Below, piece by piece: positions 5,744 to 47,511 of a DNA stretch of 64,000 nucleotides. Made by a program: the position numbers and the translations under genes. Below the pieces are notes generated by a model, which was given only the letters and a program-made list of their open reading frames with translations, was not told where the DNA came from and did not search any database. The stretch lies in contig CM059432.1 of NCBI GenBank assembly GCA_030390025.1, positions 28,770,001 to 28,834,000 of the forward strand, given 5' to 3'. The stretch's first letter is position 1; the number at the start of each line of letters is the position of its first letter. This DNA comes from Squalus acanthias. Taxonomy: Eukaryota.

Positions 5744-8419
5744 CTTTTTCTTAATGACCTGGCTAACACTGCACTCTAGGTTCTACGTTAGTGGTGTCCA
5801 ACCTGCAGCTCTCCCAAGACCTGGCAATTTGCTCCATGGAGCCCGAGCTTACTTTGTGCTCAAGTCTTATTTGCTGGCTTGGCCTGGAGTTAGTAAACAG
5901 ATGTTTTATTAGTAGATAAATACAAAATCCTGACAGCAAGATCTTTTGATATCAGAAAAGTGATATATATACACAAATTAATGGAAATGCGGTTATGAAC
6001 ACCAATGCTTTATAGTGATGTGGTCCACAAGAAGAAAAGCACATATTTAAAACTATTTCCAACTGCTGCCTCCAAAACTGTAGCTTAGTAACTGCACCAT
6101 GTAGCATAGTACAGAGTCATAAAGAGCAAGAAGGATCCAGTCCCTGGTCTGTGTCTAGTCAGCTCATCACAGCTATGAAATAGCAAGGTTATGAATGAAT
6201 AGGAAGGGAGATAAAATATGATAGAAGTGTTTTAAATTATGAAAGGATGGGACAGAGAGCATCGCGGGAGACCCAAGCAGCATAAATACAGCGCAGGCGC
6301 AGCAAGAGCATCGCATAACAATCACAGGGAGAAAAAGTGAAGAAGTAACCTCACAACCAGGCGGAGCACAAGGAATTACAGGTAAGTATTTAGGATACGT
6401 GTTTGGCAGTTAGTGTTGCGTTAGTTTAAGAATTTAGTTTATTGGTTAGTGCTTAATGGTTAGTTTTTTTTAAGTGGTTAGAGTTTGTGTTTGCTAAACA
6501 GTTAAACAGCCATAAAGCTAAACAAACAATTTTAAATTACTGTTAGCCAACATGGCAGGACAGCTGGGGTCAGTCGCATGCACATCATGTGGGAACTCCA
6601 CAACACAAGGAAGTGCCACCAACTGCTCGAGCTCGAAGTTTGAGCTTGAGGGCAGTTGGCGTCACTACAGTGCATACAGGAAGCTAAGAGTTTTGTGGAT
6701 AGCATGTTTCAGGAGGTGGTCACCCTGCAGCTACAGAGAGTTTGGGCGGCGAGGGAGTGGGTGACCACCAGGCAGACTAGGAGGAAAAGGCAGGCAATGT
6801 AGGAATCCCTGGGAGTGTGGCACTCAAACCGATATTTAGTGTTGAATACCAGCGAGGGTGAGGACACCTTGGGGGAGTGCAGTCGGAAACAAATCCACAG
6901 CACTGAGTGAGGCTTGGCTGCAAGGGGGGGGGGGGGCACTGCAGTTGTTAGAAGTTTCAATAGTCATTGGAGTAGACAAGCATTTCTGCAACAACAGATG
7001 CGGTGTGTTGCCTTCCTGGTACCAGGGTAAAGGATATCACTGAACAGATGAAGGACATTCTGTGAGGGGAAGGTTAATAGCCAAAAGTTGTGGTCCATAT
7101 TGGAACCAATGACAAAATTAGGAAAAGGGTTGAGGTCCTACAGACAGACTTTCAGCAGCTAGGAAAGAGATTAAACAACTGGACCTCAAAAGGTGGTAAT
7201 CACTGATTACTCCCAGTGCTACGTGCTAGTGAGTACAGAAACAGGAAAATAGTGCAGGTGAATGTGTGGCTGGAGAAGTGGTGCAGGAGGGAGGGCTTCA
7301 GATTCCTGGGGCATTTGGACCAGTTCTGGGGCAGGAGGAACCTGTGCAAGCTGGGACCAACGTGCTGGCAAAGAGGTTAACTAATGCTGTGGGGGAAGAG
7401 TTTAAACTAATTTTACAGGGGGAGGGGCACCAGAATGCAGCAGCAGAGAGGAGACAAGGTGCATAGAAAACTAGGAGGGTCAAACAGCAACAGAACAAAA
7501 AATAGTGTAGAAAGTGCAGGAAGCAAATGGAGAAAAAGTAAAGCAGACTAGCATGGTGTTGGAATGCATGTGTGTTAATGCAAGGAGTGTTACAAATAAG
7601 GTGAGGAGCTACAGGCGCAAGTTGCCACATAGGATTATGATAATAGTGGCTATAACAGAAACCTGGCTTAAACATGGGTAGGAATGGGAACTAGACATTC
7701 TTGGCTACAATGTATTCAGGAGGGATAGGGAAGCGAAGGGAAAAGAAAGGGGCGAGGTGGCAGTATTGATCAAGGATAATATTACAGTTCTATAGAGGGT
7801 TCAAAGACTGAATATATTTGATTAGAGTTAAGAAACAGAAAAGGAGCTGTTACATTGCTGGGTGTTTAATATAGACCCCCAAATAGCACGAAGAAGATAG
7901 AGGAGCAAATCTGTAGGCAAATTTCAGAGAAATGTAAAAATAATAGAGCAGTAATAGCAGGGAATTTTAATTACCGTAACACAGACTGGGAGAAAAAAGA
8001 GAGTAAAGGAGGGTGAAGAATTCTTAAATTGCGTACACAAGAACTTTCTTAATCAATATGTTTCTAGCCCAATGAGGAATGAAGCAGTGCTGGATCTAGT
8101 TCTGGGGAATGAAGTAGGGCAAGTGGAGTGTGTTTCAGTGGGAGAACATCTGGATAATAGTGAGCATAATATAATTAGGTTTAAAGTAGTTATGGAAAGG
8201 GACAAAGAAAAATCAAAGGTGAAAATAGCAAACGAGAATAGAGCCAATTTCAGTAACTTGAGAAGGGATCTAGCACAGGCGAACTGGAAAAAAAGATTGG
8301 CCAGTAAAACAGTAAATAAGCAAAGGTAGACCTTCAAGGTGGAGATAGTTTGGATAAAAACCAAGCATATTCCCATAAGGAGGAAAGATAAGGCATCCAA
8401 AGCTGGATGACAAAGGAAA

Positions 8420-8720
8420 GTGTCGGGAGCGGAGAGAGCAGCAGCACAGTGAGTATTTAAACTCACTTTCGCGGGCTTTTTTTTGCAGAGGCCAGTGTCG
8501 GGAGCGGAGAGAGCAGCAGCACAGTGAGTATTTAAACTCACTTTCGCGGGCTTTTTTTTGCAGAGGCCAGTGTCGGGAGCGGAGAGAGCAGCAGCACAGT
8601 GAGTATTTAAACTCACTTTCGCGGGCTTTTTTTTTGCAGAGGCCAGTGTCGGGAGCGGAGAGAGCAGCAGCACAGTGAGTATTTAAACTCACTTTCGCGG
8701 GCTTTTTTTTGCAGAGGCCA
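8420..8720 (+). repeat. Four tandem 75-76 bp monomers at the LINE 5' end
   Basis: Units start at 8420, 8495, 8570, 8646 (partial at 8721); identical except T-run length. Confidence 0.97.
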
Positions 8721-9183
8721 GTGTCCGGAGTGACGAGACCGGAAGCGGACCAGGTGGGAAGCTCCCAGGTGAACAGCATTTAAGGAGGGTGGTGGCTTAA
8801 ACCCGAGTTCCTACAGAGTAGGAACCCCCACCCGCCCTCCTCCTCTAACCTACTAGTCTTTTAGCAGTCTAAAAACAGAGGTCACAAATTTTTTGGTCTC
8901 AGTTTCTTTTCAGCAGGGCAGGAACCGGGAGGAGCGGGAAGTCGGCGTAGGACCAAGGGGACACAAGACCGGGAAGTCAGCGAAAGACCAGGGAGGTAAG
9001 ACTAACTGGTAAGTACTTTCCTCAAACCTTCCTAGAAAGTAAAACTAAAACTAGTGGGATTTGGTTAGTTTAAAAAGGAATAAGAGGAGTACAGTATACA
9101 TTGGTCTAAGTAAGCTTCGGGAAAACAAAAGTCAATAAATAAACTAAAACTAGAAAATTAAAAAGTAATATAAGGGTTAAGTC

Positions 9184-10131
9184 ATGGCAGTAGAGCTCGG
9201 ACCTGTGTCATGCTCCTCCTGTAACATGTGGGAAATCAGGGACGCTTCCTGTGTCCCTGACAACCATGTGTGCGGGAAGTGTGTCCAGCTGCAGCTCATG
9301 TGGGACCGCATGACGGCCCTTGAGCTGCGGATGGACTCACTTTGGAGCATCCACGATTCTGAGAGGGTTGTGGATAACACATTTAGTGAGTTGGTCACAC
9401 CGCAGGTTAAGGCCAGCGTAGATAGTACATGGGTGACCAAAAGGCAGAGCAAGGGCAGGAAGGTAGTGCAGAAATCCCCTGGGGTTGTCTCCCTTAGCAA
9501 CAGGTTCACCGCCTTAGGTGCTGTTGTCGGGGGGGATGACTCATCGGGGGAAGGCACCAGCAGCCAGGCTCATGGCACCATGACTGGCTCTGTTGCAAAG
9601 AAGGGAGGGAAAAAGAGTGGCAGGGCTATAGTAATAGGGGATTCGATTGTAAGGGGAATAGATAGGGGTTTCTGTGGTCGCGACCGAGACTCCAGGATGG
9701 TATGTTGCCTCCCTGGTGCAAGGGTCAAGGATGTCTCGGCGCGGGTGCAGAACATTCTGGAGGGGGAGGGGGAACAGCCAGTTGTCGTGATACATGTTGG
9801 TACCAACGACGTAGCTAAAAAAAGGGAAGAGGTCCTACAAGTAGAATTTAGGGAGTTAGGAGCCAAGCTAAAAAGTAGGACCTCGAAGGTAGTAATCTCT
9901 GGATTACTACCAGTGCCACGTGCTAGTAAGAGTACAGAGAACAGGATAGTTAGGCTAAATACGTGGCTTGAGCAGTGGTGTAAGAGGGAGGGTTTTAAAT
10001 TTTTGAGGCATTGGAACCAGTTTTGTGGTAGGTGTGACCTATACAAAAGGGACGGTCTACACCTGTGCAAAGATGGAACTGATGTTCTCGGGGTAATTTT
10101 TGATAAAGCAGTTCGGGAGCATTTAAACTAG
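9184..10131 (+). CDS. CR1 ORF1 protein: N-terminal Cys/zinc-finger and coiled-coil region + SGNH/GDSL esterase domain (315 aa)
   Basis: CxxC...CxxC; VIGDSIVR; CLPGA; HVGTND; DGLH - the established CR1 ORF1 esterase blocks. Confidence 0.93.
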   Translation: MAVELGPVSCSSCNMWEIRDASCVPDNHVCGKCVQLQLMWDRMTALELRMDSLWSIHDSERVVDNTFSELVTPQVKASVDSTWVTKRQSKGRKVVQKSPGVVSLSNRFTALGAVVGGDDSSGEGTSSQAHGTMTGSVAKKGGKKSGRAIVIGDSIVRGIDRGFCGRDRDSRMVCCLPGARVKDVSARVQNILEGEGEQPVVVIHVGTNDVAKKREEVLQVEFRELGAKLKSRTSKVVISGLLPVPRASKSTENRIVRLNTWLEQWCKREGFKFLRHWNQFCGRCDLYKRDGLHLCKDGTDVLGVIFDKAVREHLN

Positions 10132-10235
10132 TATGGCAGGGGGCTAGAAACCTATGTAGTGAAATAGAGGAAAGTGAAAGGCAGACAGAAATAAATGGTA
10201 AAAGGGTGAGGAACAAAAAACAAAGGGCCAAACTA

Positions 10236-10660
10236 CAGGAAACTTTCGTTTATCCGGCACCCAAATATCCGGAATTCTCGCTTAACCGGCAAAAATCATC
10301 CTCCGAAAACTCCTCTCAAATAACCGGCAATGTTGCCGAGTCGCAGTCGAGTCTCCGCGAACGCCGAGTGCTCCGAAAAATCCTCTCAAATAACCGGCAA
10401 TGTTGCCGATCCCGAGTCCGAGTCTGAGTCCGCGAACGCCGATTTAGTCAGTAGGGGTACTTTTCAAAAGTGCCACTACTCGGCCTCCTGGCGCTGTCGC
10501 AAGTCCGAAACATTGCAGTAGCATGAGTAGATTCTCCCGTGCTGCTTGGAGTCTCTTTGTTAAAAATAGCCTCGGTAGATATAACTCTCTGTTATCCGGT
10601 ACTTTCGATAAACCGGCACCACGCCGGTCCCGTCGATGCCGGATAAACGAAAGTTTCCTG
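10236..10660. mobile_element. 425-bp non-autonomous Tc1/mariner-superfamily (pogo/Tigger-like) MITE
   Basis: Perfect 24-bp TIRs caggaaactttcgtttatccggca (10236-10259, 10637-10660); TA at 10234-10235 and 10661-10662; subterminal WTATCCGG/TAACCGG repeats; internal ~40-bp direct repeat; CpG-rich. Confidence 0.93.
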
Positions 10661-13500
10661 TAATTCATAAAAAATGTGAGCATAAAAAAAGCCTGAGGGT
10701 TTTATACCTTAATGCGAGAAGCATCAGGAACAAGGTAGATGAATTAGCTGTGGAAATAGAGGTTAATAATTATGATCTAATTGGGATTACGGAAACATGG
10801 TTGCAGGGTGAGCAGGGCTGGGAGCTTAACATACAGGGGTATTCAGTATTTAGGAAGGATCGACAAAAAAGAAAGGGAGGAGGGGTAGCATTGCTGGTAA
10901 AAGAAGGGATAAATGCAATTGAAAGGAAGGATATTAACTCAGTTAATACAGAATCTATATGGGTGGAGCTAAGAAATAGCGAGGGGCGAAAAACATTAAT
11001 AGGAGTGGTATATAGGCCTCCAAATAGTAAAATAGAGGTTGGGGAGGGCATCACGAGGGAAATTAGAGAAGCGTGCAATAAGAGCACAGCTGTCATCATA
11101 GGTGACTTTAACTTACATATAGATTGGAATAGCCTAATCAGTAAAAATAATGAGGAGGAGGAATTCCTTGAGTGTTTAAGGGATGGTTATCTGGATCAAT
11201 ATGTCGAGGAACCAACTCGGGAACAGGCTATATTGGACTGGGTACTGTGCAATGAGAAGGGACTAATTAGTAATCTTGTTGTACGGGGACCCTTGGGTCA
11301 GAGCGATCATAACATGATCGATTTCTCACTCGAAATGGAGAGCGAAGAAATTGACTCAGATACTAAGGTCCTGAATTTAAACAAGGGGAATTATGATGCC
11401 ATTAGACGGGAACTGAGTAGGTCTGATTGGACAACGTTCCTGGGAGGACTGGAGGTAGATAAACAATGGCAAGCATTTAAAGATAGAATGACAAAATTGC
11501 AAAAATTGTTTATACCAATCTGGCATAAAAGGAAATCTAAAAAGGTGACTCAACCGTGGATAACAGGGGAAATTAGAGACAGCATAAAATCCAAAGATAG
11601 GGCGTATAAAATAGCCAAAAAAAGCGCCAGAGCGGAAGATTGGGAACAGTTTAAGATAGAGCAAAGGAGGACAAAGGGCTTAATCAAGAGGGGCAAAATA
11701 GCTTACGAAAGCAAGCTGGCGGAAAATATAAAAACTAACTCCAAAAGCTTTTATAAGTATATCAAGAGGAAAAGACTGGTGAAAACCAAAGTTGGCCCAT
11801 TGCAGTCAGATACGGGGGAATATATAACGGGAAATAAGGAAATGGCAGACCAACTAAATGCATACTTTGGGTCAGTCTTTACGAAGGAAGACACAAAAAA
11901 CCTCCCTGGGATATCGGGAAAAATAGGGACATTTGCAAAGGAGGAACTGACGCAAGTCAATATCTCTAAGGATATGGTGTTAAGGAAGCTAAAGGGATTG
12001 AAGGCGGACAAATCCCCAGGGCCTGATAACATGCATCCTAGGGTGCTGAAGGAGGTGGCCCTAGAGATAGCGGATGCACTAAGTATGATTTTTCAGAATT
12101 CATTAGACTCGGGAACAGTGCCCATGGATTGGAGGGTAGCTAACGTTACCCCACTATTCAAAAAGGGGGGTAGGGAAAAAGCAGGTAATTACAGACCTGT
12201 AAGCCTTACATCAGTTGTGGGCAAAATGCTGGAGTCCATCATTAAGGATGAAATAGCGGAGCACTTAGCAAATGGGGACAGGATAGGACAGAGTCAACAT
12301 GGATTTACAAAGGGTAAATCGTGCTTGACTAATCTATTGGAATTTTTTGAGGGAGTAACTGGTAAAATAGATGGGGGAGAGCCAGTAGATGTGGTGTACC
12401 TGGACTTCCAAAAGGCCTTCGATAAGGTCCCACATAAAAGATTAGCAGGGAAAATTGAAGCTCATGGGATAAAGGGGAAAGTATTGACGTGGATAGAGAA
12501 CTGGCTGTCAGATAGAAAACAGAGAGTTGGAATAAACGGCTCATTTTCTGAATGGCAGGCAGTAACAAGTGGGGTACCACAGGGATCTGTCCTGGGTCCC
12601 CAGCTGTTCACAATTTACATTAATGACCTGGATCAGGGAGTCGGATGCAGCATTTCCAAATTTGCAGACGACACTAAACTAGGAGGGGGGGTGGGCTCAG
12701 AGGAGGAGACCAGGAAGCTCCAGAGCGATTTGGACAGACTGGGTGATTGGGCGGATAAATGGCAGATGCACTATAATGTGGACAAGTGCGAAGTTATCCA
12801 CCTTGGGTGCAGGAACGGGAGGGCAAATTATTATTTAAATGGCAATAAATTGGGAGAGGGGGAAGTACAGAGAGACCTGGGTGTTCTTGTACACCAGTCA
12901 CTGAAGGCGAGCATGCAGGTGCAACAGGCGATCAAGAAGGCAAACGGTATGCTGGCCTTCATAGCAAAAGGGTTGGAATACAGGAACAGGGATACCTTGC
13001 TGCAGCTGTACAGGGCACTGGTGAGACCACACCTCGAGTACTGTGTACAGTTTTGGTCGCCTCATCTGAGGAAAGATGTTCTTGCCATGGAGGGGGTGCA
13101 GCGGCGATTCACCAGGCTGATACCAGGAATGGCGGGATTGACCTATGAGGAGAGACTATGTAGTTTAGGGATGTACACACTGGAGTTTAGAAGATTGAGA
13201 GGGGACCTCATAGAAGTGTATAAAATTCTGACAGGTCTAGACAGACTAGATGCAGAAGGAATGTTTCCCTTGGCGGGTGAGAACAGAACTAGAGGACATC
13301 ATTTAAGGATAAGGGCTAAACCATTTAGGACAGAAATGAGGGGGAATTTCTTCACTCAGAGGGTGGTGAACCTGTGGAACTCATTGCCACAGAGGGCAGT
13401 GTACGCCAGCTCATTAAATATATTTAAGAGGGAATTAGATGTATTTCTACAGGCAAAAGGGGTTAAGGGTTACGGAGAGAAGGCGGGGACGGGATACTGA
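10636..13500 (+). CDS. CR1 ORF2: APE endonuclease + reverse transcriptase (954 aa as called; the first ~9 codons are MITE-derived)
   Basis: YLNARS, ITETW, GDFN, SDH (APE); LDFQKAFD, GVPQGSVLGP, FADD (RT); no stops. Confidence 0.95.
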   Translation: MPDKRKFPVIHKKCEHKKSLRVLYLNARSIRNKVDELAVEIEVNNYDLIGITETWLQGEQGWELNIQGYSVFRKDRQKRKGGGVALLVKEGINAIERKDINSVNTESIWVELRNSEGRKTLIGVVYRPPNSKIEVGEGITREIREACNKSTAVIIGDFNLHIDWNSLISKNNEEEEFLECLRDGYLDQYVEEPTREQAILDWVLCNEKGLISNLVVRGPLGQSDHNMIDFSLEMESEEIDSDTKVLNLNKGNYDAIRRELSRSDWTTFLGGLEVDKQWQAFKDRMTKLQKLFIPIWHKRKSKKVTQPWITGEIRDSIKSKDRAYKIAKKSARAEDWEQFKIEQRRTKGLIKRGKIAYESKLAENIKTNSKSFYKYIKRKRLVKTKVGPLQSDTGEYITGNKEMADQLNAYFGSVFTKEDTKNLPGISGKIGTFAKEELTQVNISKDMVLRKLKGLKADKSPGPDNMHPRVLKEVALEIADALSMIFQNSLDSGTVPMDWRVANVTPLFKKGGREKAGNYRPVSLTSVVGKMLESIIKDEIAEHLANGDRIGQSQHGFTKGKSCLTNLLEFFEGVTGKIDGGEPVDVVYLDFQKAFDKVPHKRLAGKIEAHGIKGKVLTWIENWLSDRKQRVGINGSFSEWQAVTSGVPQGSVLGPQLFTIYINDLDQGVGCSISKFADDTKLGGGVGSEEETRKLQSDLDRLGDWADKWQMHYNVDKCEVIHLGCRNGRANYYLNGNKLGEGEVQRDLGVLVHQSLKASMQVQQAIKKANGMLAFIAKGLEYRNRDTLLQLYRALVRPHLEYCVQFWSPHLRKDVLAMEGVQRRFTRLIPGMAGLTYEERLCSLGMYTLEFRRLRGDLIEVYKILTGLDRLDAEGMFPLAGENRTRGHHLRIRAKPFRTEMRGNFFTQRVVNLWNSLPQRAVYASSLNIFKRELDVFLQAKGVKGYGEKAGTGY

Positions 13501-15594
13501 ATTGGAGGATCAGCCATGATCTCATTAAATGGCGGAGCAGGCTCGAAGGGCCGGATGGCCTACTCCTGCTCCTATCTTCTATGTATCTATGTATCTATGA
13601 AATAAGAGGTTAAAATAAAACAGGAAAAGAAGTTATGACAAATGTCAGGTGTAGAATACAATTGAAAACCAGGCAGAACAGAGTGATTGCAGGGGGAAAT
13701 TAAAAAAATACAAGGGCAAAGAAAGAGTATGAGAAACGATGAGCAGGTAACAAAGAATCAAAAAATCTTTTTTAAACATATAAAAAGTAAAAGTATAGTT
13801 AAAGAAATGGTGGGGCCGATTAGGGACAAAAAAGGCAATCTTCTTGTGGAGGCAGAGGACGTGACTGAGGTACTGAATGAGTATGTTACATCTGTCTTCG
13901 CAAAAGAGGATGAAGTTAATGTTAGAGTAGAGGAGGGGGAGTAGAGACATTGGATTGGATAAAAAGATAGAAGAGGTGCTAAATAGGTTGGCATCACTCA
14001 AAGTTAACAAGTCACCCGGTCCAGATGGGATGCATCTTGGATTCCTGAGGGAAGTTGGGATGGAGATAGCAGAAGCTCTGACCATAATCTTTCAATCCTC
14101 CTTGGATATGACAGTGGTGCAAGAGAACTGGAAGATTGATAATGTTACACCCTGTTCATAAAGGGGAGAGGGATAAACCCAGTAACTGCACGCTAATCAG
14201 TCTAATGTCAGTGGTGGGAAAACAGCTAGAGACCACTGTCAAGGACAAAATTCATTCTCATTTGGAGCATGGGTTAATAAAGGGACAGCCAGCATGGATT
14301 TGTTAACAGCAAATCGTGTCTGACTAATCTGATTGAATTCTTTGATGAAATAACAAAAAGGGTTAATGAAGGTAGCGCAGTAGATACATGTATGGAATTC
14401 AAAAAGCATTTGATAAAGTACCTCATAGCAGACTTATTCAGAAAATAGAAGCACATGGTTTTAAAGGAATGGTGGTAACTTGGGTACATAATTGGCTAAG
14501 GGATAAGAGGCAGAGAATAGTGGTGAATGATATTTTTCCTGAATGGAGAGAAGTATGCACAGTGGGGCCCCCCTGGGGTTGGTATTAGGGCAAATGCTTT
14601 TCTTGTTATATAGAAAATGACCTGGACTTGGGTAGAGGGAGTACAATTTGGAAGTGTGCGGATGATACAAAACGTGCCAATGTAGTAAATAATGAGCATG
14701 ATAGTAGCAGACTTCAAGAGGACATAGACAGAGTGGTGAAATGGGCAGACACAATTTAATGCAGATATAAGTGTGAAGTGCACACTTTGGGAGAAATAAC
14801 ATGGAGAGGCAGTATAATCTAAATGGTACTATTTTGAGGGGGTGGAAGAATAGAGGGACCTAGGGGGGCATAATCACAAATCTTTGAAGGTGGCCGGGCA
14901 AGTTGATAAGGAAGTTAAGAAAGCGTATGGGATACTTGGCTTTGTAAATCAGGGCACTGAATACAAAAACAAGTCAGTCATGCTAAACCTTTACAAACCT
15001 CTGGTTAAGCCTCAACTGGAGTAGTGTGCACAATTCTGGCCACCACACTTTGGGAAGGATGTCAAGGCCCTGGAGAGGGTAGAGAGGAGGTTTACTAGGA
15101 TGATACCAGGGATGAGGGCATTCAGTTATGTGGAGAGATTGAAGAAGCTGAAATTATTCTCCTTAGAGCAGAGAAGGTTAAGGGGACTAATTTGCAGGGT
15201 TATGGGGAAAAAAGGTGTGTGGGACTAAATTGGACAGCTCTTTCAAAGAGCTGGCACAGGCATGATGGGCCGAATGGCTTCCTTCCGTGCTGTAACATTC
15301 TATGATGCTAGTGTCAAGACCAACGGGCCATAGAGGCAAGGTAAGTGTAAGGGAGCAAGAAAGATTCCTTTACAGAGTTGTGAAGCAGTAGAATTCACTT
15401 CCAGAGTGAGCAGTTGAGGCAGAGACTAGGCCAACATTCAAGATTAGATTGGATAGGTGAATGAAGGAAAAGGGAATAAAAAGATACGGAAACTGGGTGG
15501 GTAAATGTGATTCAGACTAATTGCTTGCATGGAACATCAACATGGACTGTTTGAGCCATGTTGTAACTTTTACATATTTTTATGACAAGGTAAA

Positions 15595-21176: not shown

Positions 21177-22308
21177 CATAAGAACATAAGAAATAGGAGC
21201 AGGAGTAGGCCCTTCGAGCCTGCGCCGCCATTCAATAAGATCATGGCTGATCTTTTACCTCATCTCCACTTTCCTGAACTATCCCCATATCCCTCGATTC
21301 CCCTAATATTCAAAAATCTATCGATCTCTGTCTTGAATATACTCAACGACTGAGCCTCCACAGCCCTCTGGGGTAGAGAATTCCAGAGATTCACCACCCT
21401 CTGAGTGAAGAAATTTCTCCTCATCTCAGTCCTAAATGGCCGACCCCTTATTCTGAGACTGTGACCCCTGGTTCTAAGCTCCCCAGCCAGGGGAAACATC
21501 TTCCCTGCATCTACCCTGTCAAGCCCTGTAAGAATTTTGTATGTTTCAATGAGATCACCTCTCATTCTTCTAAACTCTAGGGAATATAGGACTAGTCTAC
21601 TCAATCTGTCCTCATAGAACAATCCCCCCATTCCAGGAACCAGTCTGGTGAACCTTCGTTGCACTCCCTCTATGGCAAGTATATCCTTCCTTAGGTAAGG
21701 AGACCAAAACTGTACACAATACTCCAGGTGTGGTCTCACCAGGGCCCTATATAATTGCAGTAAGACATCTTTACTCTTATACTCAAATCCTCTTGTAATA
21801 AAGGCCAACATACCATTTGCTTTCCTAATTGCTTGCTGCACCTGCATGTTAACTTTCAGTGATTCTTGTACAAGGACACCCAGGTCCCTCAGAACACCAA
21901 CATTTCCCAATCTCACCATTTAAAAAATACTCTGCTTTTCTTTTTTTCCCTGACCAAAGTGGATAACTTCACATTTCTCCACATTATATTCCATTTGCCA
22001 TGTTCTTGCCCACTCACTTAGCTTGTCTATATCCCCTTGAAGCCTCCTTACATCCTCAACTTACATTCCCACCCAGCTTTGTATCATCAGCAAACTTGGA
22101 TATATTACATTTGGTCCCCTCATCCAAATCATTGATATAGATTGTGAATAGCTGAAGACCAAGCACTGATCCTTCCGGTACCCCACTAGTTACAGCCTGC
22201 CAACCTGAAAATGACCAGTTTATTCCTACTCTCTGTTTTCTGTCCGTTAACCAATCCTCAATCCATGCTAGTATATTACCCCCAATCCTATGGGCCCTAA
22301 TTTTGTTT
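21177..22308 (-). mobile_element. CR1 LINE 3' fragment
   Basis: ORF 21260-21919 RT C-terminus; FADD; 3' tail at 21177. Confidence 0.92.
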
Positions 22309-22310
22309 AG

Positions 22311-25040
22311 AAACATAGAAAAATAGGAGCAGGAGTAGGCCATTCGGCCCTTCGAGCCTGTTCTGCCATTCGAGCCTGCTCTGCCATTCAATATCATGGC
22401 TGACCCTCTATATCAAAACCATATTCCCACTCTCTCCCCATACCCCTTGATGCCTTGTGTCTAGAAATCTATCTATCTCCTTCTTAAATATATTCAGTGA
22501 CTTGGCCTTCACAGCCTTCTGTGGTAGAGAATTCCACAGGTTCACCACCCTCTGAGTGAAGAAATTTCTCATCTCAGTCCTAAATGTCCTACCCCGTATC
22601 CTGAGCCTGTGACCCCTCATTCTAGACCCCCCCCCCCAGCCAGGGGAAACACCCTCCCTGCATCCAGTCTGTCTAGCCCTGTCAGAATTTTAAACATTTC
22701 AATTAGATCCCCTCTCATTCTTCTAAACTCTAGTGAATACAGGCCTAGTCGACCCAATCTCTCCTCATAAGACAGTCCTGCCATCCCAGGAATCAGTCTG
22801 GTGAACCTTCGCTGCACTCCCTCTATGGCAAGTATATCCTTTCTTAGGTAAGGAGACCAAAACTGCACACAGTACTCCAGGTGTGGTCTCACCAAGGCCC
22901 TGTATAACTGTAGTAAGACATCCTTGCTCCTGTACTCAAATCCGCTTGCAATGAAGGTCAACATACCATTTGCCTTCCTAACTGCTTGCTGCAGCTGCAT
23001 GTTTGCTTTCAGTGAGTGGTGTACAAGGACACCCAGGTCTCTTTGTACATCAACATTTCCCAATCTATCACCATTTAAATATTCCTCTGCCTTTCTGTTT
23101 TTCCTACCGAAGTGGATAACTTCACATTTATCCATGTTATACTGCATCTGCCATGTATTTGCCCACTCACTCAACTTGTCTAAATCGCCTTGAAGCCTCT
23201 TTGCATCCTCCTCACAACTCAAAATCCCACCTTGTTTCGTGTCGTCAGCAAACTTGGAAATATTACATTTGGTTCCCTCATCCAAATCATTGATATATAA
23301 TGTGAATAGCTGGGGCCCAAGCACTGATCCCTGTGGTACCCCACTAGTCACCCCGAAAAAGACCCATTTTTTCTTACTCTGTTTCCTGTCTGTTAAACAA
23401 TTTTCAATCCATGCCAGTATATTACCCCCAATCCCATGTGCTTTAATTTTGCACACTAACCTCTTATGTGGGACTTTATCAAAGGCCTTCTGAAAATCCA
23501 AATACACCACATCCACTGGTTCTCCCTTATCTATTCTACCAGTTACATCCTCAAAAACGATTTCCCTTTCATAATTCCATGTTGACTTGGTCTAATCCCG
23601 TTGATATTTTCCAAGTGTCCTGTTATCACGTCCTTTATAATAGACTCTAGCATTTTCCCTACTACTGATGTTAGGCTAACCGGTCTGTAGTTCCCCGTTT
23701 TCTCTCTCCCTCCTTTTTTAAATGGTGGGGTTACATTTGCCACCCTCCAATCTGCAGGAACTGTTCCATAATCTATAGAATTTTGGAAGATGACAACCAA
23801 TGCATCCACTATTTCCATGGCTACCTCTTTCAGTACTCTGGGATGCAGATTATCAGGCCCTGGGGATTTATCAGCTTTCAGTCCCATTAATCGCTCCAGC
23901 ACTATTATTTTACTAATACTAATTTCCTTTAATTCCTCCTTCTCACTAGACCCTTGGTTCCCTAGCATTTCTGAGAAGTTATTTGTGTCCTCTTCCGTGA
24001 AGACAGAACCAAAGCATTTGTTTAATTGCTCTGTCATTTCCTCATTCCCCACTATAAATTCTCCTGTCTGACTGTAAAGGACCTACATTTACCTTCGCCA
24101 GTCTTTTCCTTTTCACATACCTATAGAAGCTTTTACAATCCGTTTTTAGATTTTGCGCTAGTTTGTGCTCATATTCTATTTTCCCCTTTATGAATTTCTT
24201 GGTCCCCCTTTGCTGATTTCTAAAAAGATCCCAATCCTCTGGCTGACCGCTTTTTCTGGCAACTTTATAAGCTTCCTCCTTTGACTTAATACTAGCTTTA
24301 ATTTCTTTTGTTAGCCATGGTTGGATCACTTTTCCTTTTGGGTTTTTATGCCCTAGAAGAATATATGTTTGTTGCAAATTATGCATTATTTCCTTGAATG
24401 TTAGCCATTGTATGTCCACCTTCATACCTTTTAGTGTAGTCTCCCAATCTACCATGGCCAACTTGTCCCTCATACCCTTGTAGTTTCCTCTGTTTAGATT
24501 GAAGACCTTAGTTTCAGATTGGACATCACTCAAACTTAATGTAAAATTCAATCATATTATGCTCACTTGTCCCTAAAGGCCCCTTTACCACAAGATTATT
24601 GATTAGCCCTTTCTCATTACACAGTACCAGATCCAGAATAGCCTGTTCCCTGGTTGGTTCCTCCACATACCAATCCAGGAAACCATCTCTCATGCATTCC
24701 AAGAATTCGTCCTCCACACCATTAGTGGTAATTTGATTTGCCCAGTCAATTGTAAATTAAAGTCCCCCATGATTACCGCATTGCCCTTGTTACATGCACT
24801 TCTAATTTCTTGATCGATACTGTGCCCTACATTACCACTACTGTTTGGTGGCCTATACACAACTCCCACCAATGTTTTCCACCCTTTGCTGTTTCTTAGT
24901 GATCTGTCGAGCCAAGATCTTTTATCTCTACCGTACCGATCTCATCCCTTATTAACAGCGCTACGCCACCTCCTTTTCCTTTTTGTCTGTCCTTCCTAAA
25001 TGTTGAGTACCCTGGAACATTCAGTTCCCAGCTTTGGTCC
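22311..25040 (-). mobile_element. CR1 LINE, near-complete ORF2 with frameshifts
   Basis: Collinear ORF pieces 24690-24872 (EN), 24526-24717, 24042-24551, 23543-24052, 22617-23516 (RT), 22408-22620. Confidence 0.93.
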
Positions 25041-31251: not shown

Positions 31252-32800
31252 AATATCTCCAAGTTTGCAGATGACACAAAGCTGGGTGGGCGTGTGTGTT
31301 GTGAGGAGGATGCAGAGAAAAGACATACATGCTCTCGAGGCAGTACAAAGAAGGTTCACTCGGTTAATCCCGGGGATGAGGGGGTGGACATACGAGGAGA
31401 GGTTGAGTAGATTGGGACTCTACTCATTGGAGTTCAGAAGAATGAGAGGCGATCTTATTGAAACATATAAGATTGTGAAGGGGCTTGATCGGGTGGACGC
31501 GGTGAGGATGTTCCCAATGATGGGTGAAACTAGAACTAGGGGACATAATCTTAGAATAAGGGGCTGCTCTTTCAAAACTGAGATGAGGAGAAACTTTTTC
31601 ACTCAGAGGGTAGTGGATCTGTGGAATTTGCTACCCCAGGAAGCTGTGGAAGCTACTTCATTAAATAAATTTAAAACAGAAATAGACCGTTTCCTAGAAG
31701 TAAAGGGAATTAGGGGTTACGGGGAGCGGGCTGGAAATTGGACATGAGTTTGAGTTCGGATCGGTCAAGGCCCTGTGGGTGGCGGAGCGGGCCCAGGGGC
31801 CGAGTGGCCTGGTCCTGCTCCTTCTTCTTCTTCGTGTTCTTTAGAGTTGAGGTTGGATCAGATCAGCCATGATCTCATTGAATGGCGGAGCAGGCTCGAG
31901 GGGCCGATTGGTCTACTCCTGCTCCTATTTCTTATGTTCTTATGTTCTTAAACTCCAGTATGATTTGGACAAGTTGGGTGATTGGGTAGATGCAGTATAA
32001 TGTGGATAAATGCGAGGTTATCCACTTTGGTGGCAAAAACAGGAAGGCAGATTATCTGAACGGCAATAGATTGGGAAAAGGGGAAGTGCAACGAGACCTG
32101 GGAGTCCTTGTGCACCAGTCGTTGAAGGTAAGCATGCAGATACAGCAAGCGGTTAAGGCGGCAAATGGTATGTTGGCCTTCATAGCGAGAGGATTCGAGT
32201 ACAGGAGCAAGGATGTCTTGCTGCAGTTGTACAGGGCCTTGGTGAGACCACACCTTGAGTATTGTGTGCAGTTTTGGTGGCCTTATCTGAGGAAGGATGT
32301 TCTTGCCATGGAGGGAGTGCAGCGAAGATTCACCAGACTGATACCTGGGATGGCAGGAATGACATATGAAGAGAGATTGGGACGATTGGGCTTGTATTCG
32401 CTAGAGTTTAGAAGAATGAGAGGGGATCTCATTGAAACTTATAAAATTCTAACAGGACTAGACAGACTGGATGCAGGAAGGATGTTCCCGATGGCAGGGG
32501 AGTCCAGAACCAGGGGTCACAGTCTAAGGATAAGGGGTAAGCCATTTAGGACTGAGATGAGGAGGAATTTCTTCACCCAGAGAGTGGTGAACCTGTGGAA
32601 TTCTCTACCACAGAAGGCAGTTGAGGCCAATTCATGAAATATATTCAAGAAGGAGTTAGATATATTTCTTAAGGCTAAAGGGATCAAGGGATATGGGGAG
32701 AAAGCAGGGACAGGGTACTGAATTTGGATGATCAGCCATGATCTCATTAAATGGCGAAGCTGGGCCGAATGGCCTACTCCTGCTCTTATCTATGTTTCTA
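31252..32800 (+). mobile_element. CR1 3' fragment (31252-31320 + 31950-32800) with a second CR1 3' fragment nested at about 31321-31949
   Basis: Host reads EEDAEK|LQYDLDKLG across the insertion; both pieces have 3' tails. Confidence 0.88.
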
Positions 32801-33569
32801 TTCTGCCTTTCTCTTCTGAAGACACCAAGGTAACGGCCCATGTACAGCAGTAGCCTGTTAGCACCTTAGCCAAGTGGTCAGTCCTTAAATGTGAGCTTTG
32901 ACAATCAGTGGAGTCAGCCTATTTGCTGACAGGAGCATCACATCCTATACTCACTATGTTCTCATGCACGGTCCTGCAGAAGTCACCCGATAGTGATCAG
33001 GAGTGAGAGTGCTGGATAATTTTGGCTTGCCTAGTCCTGGGGTGCTTAGGCCAATTATGCCATCCCTATTACTGCCCGTGGTACTGATCAGCTCACTCAA
33101 CACCAACTGGGAAGTGAACCTGGTCTGTATGGTTCAATTCCACACTGTCTTCATCAATGGAGCCATCAGCTTCTATTTGTTCTGTAAACAGAATGTGCAT
33201 CAGGGCAGCTGGTCAAAATAAGCTAGTCATGTTACAGACAAGGCGCCAACCTCATGAATCCTCCATTTCCATGTTCGCCATGAGGTGCTTTTTGCTCTGG
33301 GTAAGGGATACATTTTTGTATTCATTAAGTCGACTGATGTTGGCAGTAAGAAATTCAATCTTTTTTCAATTCTGTCACCACCGTCACTGACAGGTTAGGT
33401 ATAGCCAAGTTTAAATGCAGAGCAAAGATTTCTTTAATCTGTATCTCACACCAACTCCTACACCACCAGTGACATTTTTGCATTTCTCATACCAATCATC
33501 CTCTGGCCTCAGTGGGACTGGCTAATAATAATTGGTGCTAAGGCAGCAGTTTATGACGTCAGCCTATAT

Positions 33570-46071: not shown

Positions 46072-47511
46072 TGGATTCCGCCCACTAAGGGGCACAATGG
46101 ACATGATCTTCACCGCACGTCAATTACAAGAGAAATGCAGGGAACAGCACCAACCGCTGTACATGGCCTTCTTTGATCTCACAAAGGCCTTCAACACTGT
46201 CAACCGTGAGGGATTATGAAGTGTCCTCCTCAAATTCGGCTGCCCTCAAAAGTTTATCACCATCCTCCGCCTGCTTCACAACGACATGCAAGCCGTGAGC
46301 CTGACCAACGGTTCCACCACAGACCCAATTCACGTATGAACCGGGGTCAAGCAAGGCTGTGCCATCGCACCAACGCTCTTCTCGATCTTCCTTGCTGCAA
46401 TGCTCCATCTCACCCTGCGTAAGCTCCCCGCTGGAGTGGAGCTAATTTACAGAACAAACGGGAAACTATCCAACCTCCGTCGCCTCCAGTCCAGATCCAA
46501 GGTCGTCCCATCACAGTATGCAGATGACGCTTGCGTCTGTGCTCACTCGGAGGTCGAACTCCAAACCATCGTCAACACCTTCACTGAAGCGTACGAGAGC
46601 ATGGGCCTTGCACTAAACATCCGTAAGACAAAGGTCCTCTACCAACCTGCCCCCGCCACATAGTACTGCCCCCCAATTATCAAAATCCACGACAAGGCCT
46701 TGGACAACGTGGACCACTTTCCATACCTCAGGAGCCTACTGTCAACAAGGGCAGACGTCGATGACTAAGTCCAACACCGCCTTCAGTGTGCCAGTGCAGC
46801 CTTCTGTTGCCTGAGGAAGAGAGTGTTTGAAGATCAGGACCTCAAACCCGGCACTAAGCTCATGGTCTACAGAGCAACAGTGATACCTGCCCTGCTGTAT
46901 GCCTCAGAGACATGGACCATGTACAGCAGGCACCTCAAAGCACTGGAGGGGTACCACCAACACTGCCTCCGCAAGATCCTGCAAATCCACTGGCAGGATA
47001 GGTGCACCAACGTCCGTGTTCTCGCTCAGGCCAACATCGAAGCTTTGACCACGCTCGATCAGCTTCGATGGACGGGTCACATTGTCCGCATGCCCGATAC
47101 GAGACTCCCAAAACAAGCGCTCTACTCGGAGCTCTGGCACGGCAAGAGAGCCCCAGGTGGGCAGAGGAAACGCTTCAAGGACACCCTCAAAGCCTCCTTG
47201 AAAAAGTGCAACATCCCCACCGACACCTGGGAATCCCTGGCCCAAGACCACACAAAGTGGAGGAGAAGCATCCGGGAAGGCGCCAAACACCAAGTCTCTT
47301 CACCGGGAGCAAGCGGAAGCCAAGAGCAGGCAGCACAAGGAGCGCATGTCAACCCAAGCACCCCACCCACCCGCCCCTTCAACCACAGTCTGCCCCACCT
47401 GTGACAGAGACTGTAGGTCCCGCATTGGACTCATCAGTCACCTGCGAACTCATTTTTAATGTGGAAGCAAGTCATCCTCGGTTCCGAGGGACTGCCTAAG
47501 AAGAAGAAGAA
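46072..47511 (+). mobile_element. RTE-clade LINE, 5'-truncated, degenerate
   Basis: GFRPLRGTMDMIFTARQLQEKCRE, DLTKAF, YADD, RW.GHIVRMPDTRLPKQ; (AAG)n tail; perfect 26-bp TSD at 46046-46071 and 47512-47537. Confidence 0.95.

Follow-up and report, generated by a model that had tools for sequence, protein, structure and literature searches.

Vertebrate LINEs of the CR1 clade with an esterase in ORF1 carry an APE endonuclease and a reverse transcriptase (RT) in ORF2 and lack poly(A), as described in the available sections of PMC3905857 and of a CR1 survey (bioRxiv 10.64898/2026.01.13.699120). In these sections the word frameshift is absent and the translation of ORF2 is not addressed. The esterase of such elements is dealt with in the accessible part of PMC5408684, and the comparison with print also included the corresponding part of PMC11835228. 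For non-LTR elements in general, the available text of PMC3894237 treats the initiation of ORF2 as an open question.

In retroviral gag-pol and in coronaviruses, -1 frameshifting takes place at heptamers of the type X_XXY_YYZ, where the ORFs overlap in the -1 frame, the heptamer is in phase and the downstream ORF has no start codon; U_UUA_AAC, G_GGA_AAC and A_AAA_AAC are named as three of the four most shifty heptamers (PMC5009743, accessible sections). Among retroelements, the non-LTR elements TRE5-A and TRE3-A of Dictyostelium are said to need a -1 frameshift (PMC5911963), and Penelope-like elements with a frameshift and a pseudoknot have been described (PMC8557442; excerpts in both cases). 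Our literature search, with subscription papers outside its scope, found no paper on frameshifting in CR1. The chicken and turtle CR1 papers of 1997 and notes in Repbase may reportedly already mention an overlap of the ORFs or a frameshift.

MITEs of the ITm group and the Tigger/pogo elements of cartilaginous fishes are characterized by a TA duplication, short TIRs, the lack of coding capacity and their abundance, and TIRs of 18-23 bp are reported for chondrichthyan Tigger (PMC9219625 and PMC7386202, available parts). The locus described here brings the two kinds of element together: the LINE has the esterase ORF1, the ORF2 with APE and RT and the end without poly(A) of the known vertebrate elements but, unlike these, this copy bears a MITE, whose 24-bp TIRs compare with the 18-23 bp given for Tigger.

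Results

A full-length young CR1 element

The analysed stretch of DNA (64 kb, referred to as the window) contains a full-length young LINE (Table 1). Judged by the order of APE and RT in ORF2, the SGNH esterase in ORF1 and the short repeats at the 3' end, it belongs to the CR1 clade. ORF1 matches Pfam Lipase_GDSL_2 above the cut-off (E 4.4e-11), and the cysteine columns of its N-terminal finger-like motif are conserved in relatives. Among the named matches listed, proteins of sharks and rays come closest (ORF1, at most 69%), followed by bird and turtle ORF2 (~36-43%), and the nearest named ORF2 matches listed are LINE proteins of ray, bird and turtle. The host is accordingly taken to be a cartilaginous fish. 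The 75-bp array at the 5' end resembles the monomer promoters of some LINEs.

The site of the young LINE is an older, decayed CR1 ORF2. The older remnant aligns with amino acids 173-303 at 8009-8401 and with amino acids 363-423 at 13741-13923 and reads through the site, which shows a (G)AAA duplication of just 3-4 nt. This older CR1 is of another subfamily and is split by the young LINE into 6552-8418 and 13600-15500. The window is generally dense in CR1 remnants, with further ORF2 fragments at 21260-25039 (minus strand) and 31316-32801 (63-82% amino-acid identity). An open frame of 211 aa at 46769-47404 has no Pfam match; we take it to resemble the C-terminal part of another, RTE-like LINE type.

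The family was followed in public runs. Of 24 runs listed, 20, from 12 studies, contain 75-92% of the sampled words of 9150-13600, and the four with a word share of 0.00 were left out. Contigs of the runs X1, X2, X6 and X16 were mapped; such contigs drop rare variants and their depth gives no copy number, and X6 and X16 carry organism labels other than those of X1 and X2. Over ~4.3 kb, 12 letters distinguish the LINE from the X16 contigs. Hence, the LINE is young, and an open ORF2 is possible without selection.

The LINE words occur under about ten organism labels, very small runs included, which fits a young, abundant family common to close relatives or host-associated samples. Horizontal transfer was considered, but close relatives or host-associated samples explain the sharing. 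Part of a CR1-type esterase ORF1 is encoded on a 506-bp contig filed under a bacterial genome, and bacterial labels are also attached to some of the ORF matches; these CR1 pieces are likely animal DNA contaminating the assemblies.

Table 1. Positions of the features discussed in the text (window coordinates).
Feature	Position	Strand	Remarks
Second, decayed CR1, other subfamily: T_TTA_AAC_TAA at ORF1 end	7401..7410	+	sequence
Full-length young CR1-clade LINE	8419..13599 (ends approximate by few bases)	+	older ORF2 remnant flanks both sides
5' tandem array of young LINE	8419..8730	+	75-bp unit, 4.1 copies, 98% matches
ORF1, 315 aa	9184..10131	+	N-terminal Cys-rich finger-like motif, C-terminal SGNH/GDSL esterase, end ...HLN*
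Native ORF2 frame, upstream linker part	10107..10235	+	-1 relative to ORF1, without Met
Slippery heptamer T_TTA_AAC, ORF1 frame	10122..10128	+	ORF1 stop TAG (10129-10131) directly after; candidate -1 frameshift site
Left TA target-site copy	10234..10235		sequence
MITE, 425 bp	10236..10660		perfect 24-bp TIRs (10236-10259, 10637-10660); internal 48-nt direct repeat, short TIR-like sub-repeats
MITE-borne ATG in ORF2 frame	10636..10638	+	T at -3, C at +4; predicted paired in TIR stem
Right TA target-site copy	10661..10662		sequence
Native ORF2 body	10663..13500	+	APE endonuclease and reverse transcriptase, without stop; Pfam Exo_endo_phos, RVT_1
3' UTR of LINE	13501..13599	+	ends in short octamer-type tandem repeats (13575-13599), without poly(A)

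The MITE in the ORF1-ORF2 linker

In agreement with the original prediction of a 425-bp element with perfect 24-bp TIRs and a TA duplication, the terminal bases are complementary at 24 of 24 positions and TA stands on both sides of the element. With up to three mismatches allowed, there are just two occurrences of the TIR in the window, a number that none of 100 shuffles reached. The MITE is short and non-coding, and contigs of the public runs have a single TA at the empty site. It is a TA-targeting element of the ITm group (Tc1/mariner/pogo), and its sequence is probably pogo-like, as we assume from the look of the TIR. Within the 64-kb window there is no transposase-coding partner with the same TIR, and a scan of viral contigs gave no match to it. 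A search of 8300-10800 against Rfam returned two matches, both far below the gathering score.

Removal of the MITE and one TA had been predicted to restore a single open frame, ...QRAKL|IHKKCEHKKSLRVLYLNARS; this frame is open back to 10107 and overlaps the ORF1 stop (10129-10131). The stop claimed for the filled frame at 10425 is present as well and is followed by further stops at 10452, 10524 and 10644. The first of these stops is a variant that is rare among the copies of this MITE, as most sister MITE contigs have another base at this position. As the insertion comprises 427 nt, which is 1 mod 3, the frame of the LINE is broken whatever the stops in the MITE.

The native ORF1-ORF2 junction

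The first reading of this DNA overlooked two features of the native ORF2, the lack of a start codon and the slippery heptamer at its beginning, and these alter the view of what is broken by the MITE. From 10107 onwards no in-frame Met is found before 11314, at the distal end of the endonuclease domain. This ORF2 without Met is the form of the LINE that spread. The heptamer has the X_XXY_YYZ pattern in phase, and the downstream ORF lies in the -1 frame, which is open across it. At both CR1 junctions in the window the -1 frame reads FKL. Six of the 144 possible encodings of base-L-N-stop contain a slippery X_XXY_YYZ, and precisely these six, and no others, give FKL in the -1 frame. The same heptamer is found in frame once inside ORF2 (11376), so that the heptamer alone appears to be tolerated.

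The overlap in the -1 frame, the in-phase heptamer and the downstream ORF without start codon are the arrangement known from gag-pol and coronaviruses, and -1 frameshifting is, on this pattern, the most likely mode of ORF2 translation at the native CR1 junction. Unlike in the viral sites, the stop follows directly on the heptamer, a downstream stem-loop or pseudoknot is not predicted, and the element is a vertebrate CR1. For both window copies, folding of the 3' sequence revealed no stimulatory structure (z -0.54 to +0.81, five of five folds not better than shuffles), with pseudoknots and long-range pairs lying outside the folding model. As no stable fold follows the heptamer, the classical stimulator appears to be missing. 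Both copies have a G-run 10 nt after the heptamer (10139-10143 and 7418-7422), and the stingray and wood stork models have a Gly at the matching place of the -1 frame (FKLxxxG); the run may be a stimulator arm or a protein-binding site.

Heptamer-compatible endings among relatives

The DNA of the heptamer was seen directly in two copies, and for the other relatives its conservation at the nucleotide level is suggested by peptides. ORF1 ends in LN in 41 of the 120 relatives listed, the rest being teleost esterases, which are more distant, or models that are incomplete or fused. The FKL of the -1 frame is present in gene models of stingray (two) and wood stork; it was found in 20 of the 44 ORF2 matches with enough upstream sequence, 19 of these 20 coming from the wood stork, a single bird species.

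A broader view was obtained from a profile search over representatives at 50% identity, of which the best 150 of 9902 were examined and 94 had a complete esterase end. A C-terminal dipeptide compatible with a slippery heptamer was observed in 60 of these 94 as compared to a background of 4.9%, the profile having been built on LN-ending sequences and being biased towards LN. After similar tails had been collapsed, 28 of 50 representatives ended in LN, GN or KN (background 0.8%) and 22 had other ends; tails of other length still ended in one of the three dipeptides in 26 of 57 cases. LN, GN and KN match U_UUA_AAC, G_GGA_AAC and A_AAA_AAC, respectively.

The first base of the heptamer is the last base of the codon that precedes the dipeptide. 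Before LN, residues with only pyrimidine-ending codons were found 10 times and residues with only purine-ending codons once, while before GN the numbers were 0 and 6 (all Q); the contrast gives a Fisher p of 6e-4, uncorrected for relatedness. At the level of the encoded residues, the preceding position co-varies as the heptamers require. The LN-ending members include proteins of lizard, turtle, swallow and alligator, and the GN and KN members looked up carry no taxon. The teleost esterase ORF1s did not show the signal. In other families the linker does contain Met codons, whose positions vary.

Searches for DNA of related junctions gave no confirmed locus in metagenome contigs (382 and 138 candidates), none in viral contigs and none in plasmids; prokaryote genomes contained one short locus without the junction. 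A search for longer ORF1 proteins yielded six, with no new clean fusion of ORF1 and ORF2 among them.

The insertion could also be a one-off event while the native ORF2 is translated by AUG-independent termination-reinitiation, as proposed for mammalian L1, or by stop-start coupling, as in SART1; the filled copy might then yield a little ORF2p, and the conserved motif would serve that process. AUG-independent initiation of ORF2 is considered likely for L1 (PMC5009743), SART1 uses UAAUG coupling (PMC3708506; both from the accessible text), and the failure to find a 3' stimulator would be in agreement with either. However, the motif alternates between three heptamers known to be slippery, together with the matching preceding residue, for which reinitiation has no need, and no stop interrupts the -1 frame at the heptamer. 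Nor is there a stop-start overlap, the ATG at 10133 being out of frame and limited to 4 codons. We consider translation by reinitiation or coupling unlikely.

The MITE-borne ATG

The ATG that overlaps the right TIR opens, as had been claimed, an ORF of 954 aa with the endonuclease and RT domains. An open in-frame ATG is given by two of the six combinations of orientation and phase of the MITE. With two abundant families, a MITE hit in the linker, which holds 10 of the 304 TA sites of the LINE body, is expected somewhere. The ATG is most likely a chance by-product of the sequence beside the TIR.

Even a single or rare filled copy might make ORF2p from this ATG by leaky scanning, from a cryptic promoter or after splicing and be a possible source of RT, as the 954 aa are uninterrupted and ORF1 is intact. 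The ATG has a weak context, however, and lies ~500 nt downstream of the ORF1 stop with six other ATGs in between, and the RNA fold of the MITE predicts it to be paired in the TIR stem. With ~0.3% divergence the frame would be expected to be open anyway, and the coding differences to the X6 and X16 majority (11 sites listed, 8 non-silent and 3 silent) are near neutral drift, with small numbers. Such a use of the ATG therefore seems very improbable.

The empty site in public runs

The exact empty-site joint (10233 to 10661) was found in X2, X6 and X16; X1 has a variant of this joint that differs in one base (depth 7167). In X16 a contig of 718 nt spans the empty site with one other letter, and its depth of 128.7 makes up the whole depth at 10215 and at 10684 in the rows listed; in X6 the empty-site depth of 12.9 likewise equals the total beside both junctions. 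As any filled-junction contig must cover 10215 or 10684, X6 and X16 contain no such contig. The empty site holds all of the adjoining depth in these two runs, hence the LINE family is normally without the MITE. The MITE has a high depth by itself, with many variant contigs, in all four runs (as depth, not as a count of copies), and in X16 its bins (926 and 570) exceed the adjoining LINE bins (138 and 310). The MITE is thus not bound to the LINE; it forms an abundant family of its own.

Two readings had originally been offered. The recent hop of a MITE that inactivated a young LINE agrees with the empty site as the normal state, while the composite of LINE and MITE does not fit the lack of filled-junction contigs in X6 and X16. 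That such a composite family moves as one retrotransposing unit, in which the MITE is both cargo and the source of the start codon, has a very low probability: in its favour are the in-frame ATG with nine MITE-encoded codons, the linker as an uncommon landing place (10/304 TA sites) and the 0.92 of the filled-stretch words contained in X1, which two separate families explain too, but all four runs have the empty site (X1 as the one-base variant), the MITE peptide starts none of the 120 ORF2 relatives listed (best identity 61%) and the exact protein was not found in the protein collection, the last two points being weak since the LINE family is absent from that collection.

A DNA transposon nested in a retrotransposon is typically a clean insertion with a target duplication and an empty site in sister copies. 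The MITE in the LINE is an ordinary nested insertion of this kind, and the chance in-frame ATG is the sole difference from the usual case. We infer that the filled copy is probably a one-off insertion and the filled allele single-copy, though a few more filled copies may exist.

Discussion

Taken together, we consider it probable that a one-off MITE insertion hit the linker of a CR1 element whose native ORF2 is expressed as a -1 frameshift fusion, that the filled copy is dead in cis and that its ATG arose by chance. A full-length copy of the young, abundant CR1 family would have inserted here, and the young, abundant, TA-targeting MITE would then have hit the variable region that links ORF1 to the endonuclease. 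In copies without the MITE, a minority of the ribosomes, paused at the adjacent stop, may slip by -1 on U_UUA_AAC and produce a fusion of ORF1, linker, endonuclease and RT, from an ORF2 without AUG. In the filled copy the slipped ribosomes would read into the MITE and terminate at 10425; as a result, ORF1p would be made, but no RT in cis. As slipped ribosomes would meet the MITE stops, the filled copy appears to be dead in cis, and ORF2p is presumably lost from it.

The endings of the relatives suggest that this may hold more widely. It is likely that all esterase CR1s in the range that extends from sharks and rays through lizards and turtles to crocodilians and birds, together with more distant relatives with G_GGA_AAC or A_AAA_AAC, produce their RT as an ORF1-ORF2 fusion. 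The fusion would arise by a gag-pol-like -1 frameshift on a heptamer directly before the ORF1 stop and would do without a classical RNA structure on the 3' side.

The conserved frameshift signature exposed by the MITE matters more than the insertion. A conserved, co-varying heptamer offers a precise and cheap test of the translation of CR1 ORF2. If the frameshift is true, it would explain the translation of ORF2 in the LINE group that is most abundant in non-mammalian vertebrates. The esterase would then be physically tied to the RT, and the stoichiometry of ORF1 and ORF2 would be set as in retroviruses. Annotations of CR1 ORF2 that start from the first downstream Met would be wrong at the N-terminus, and cell-culture assays of CR1 would have to retain the native junction.
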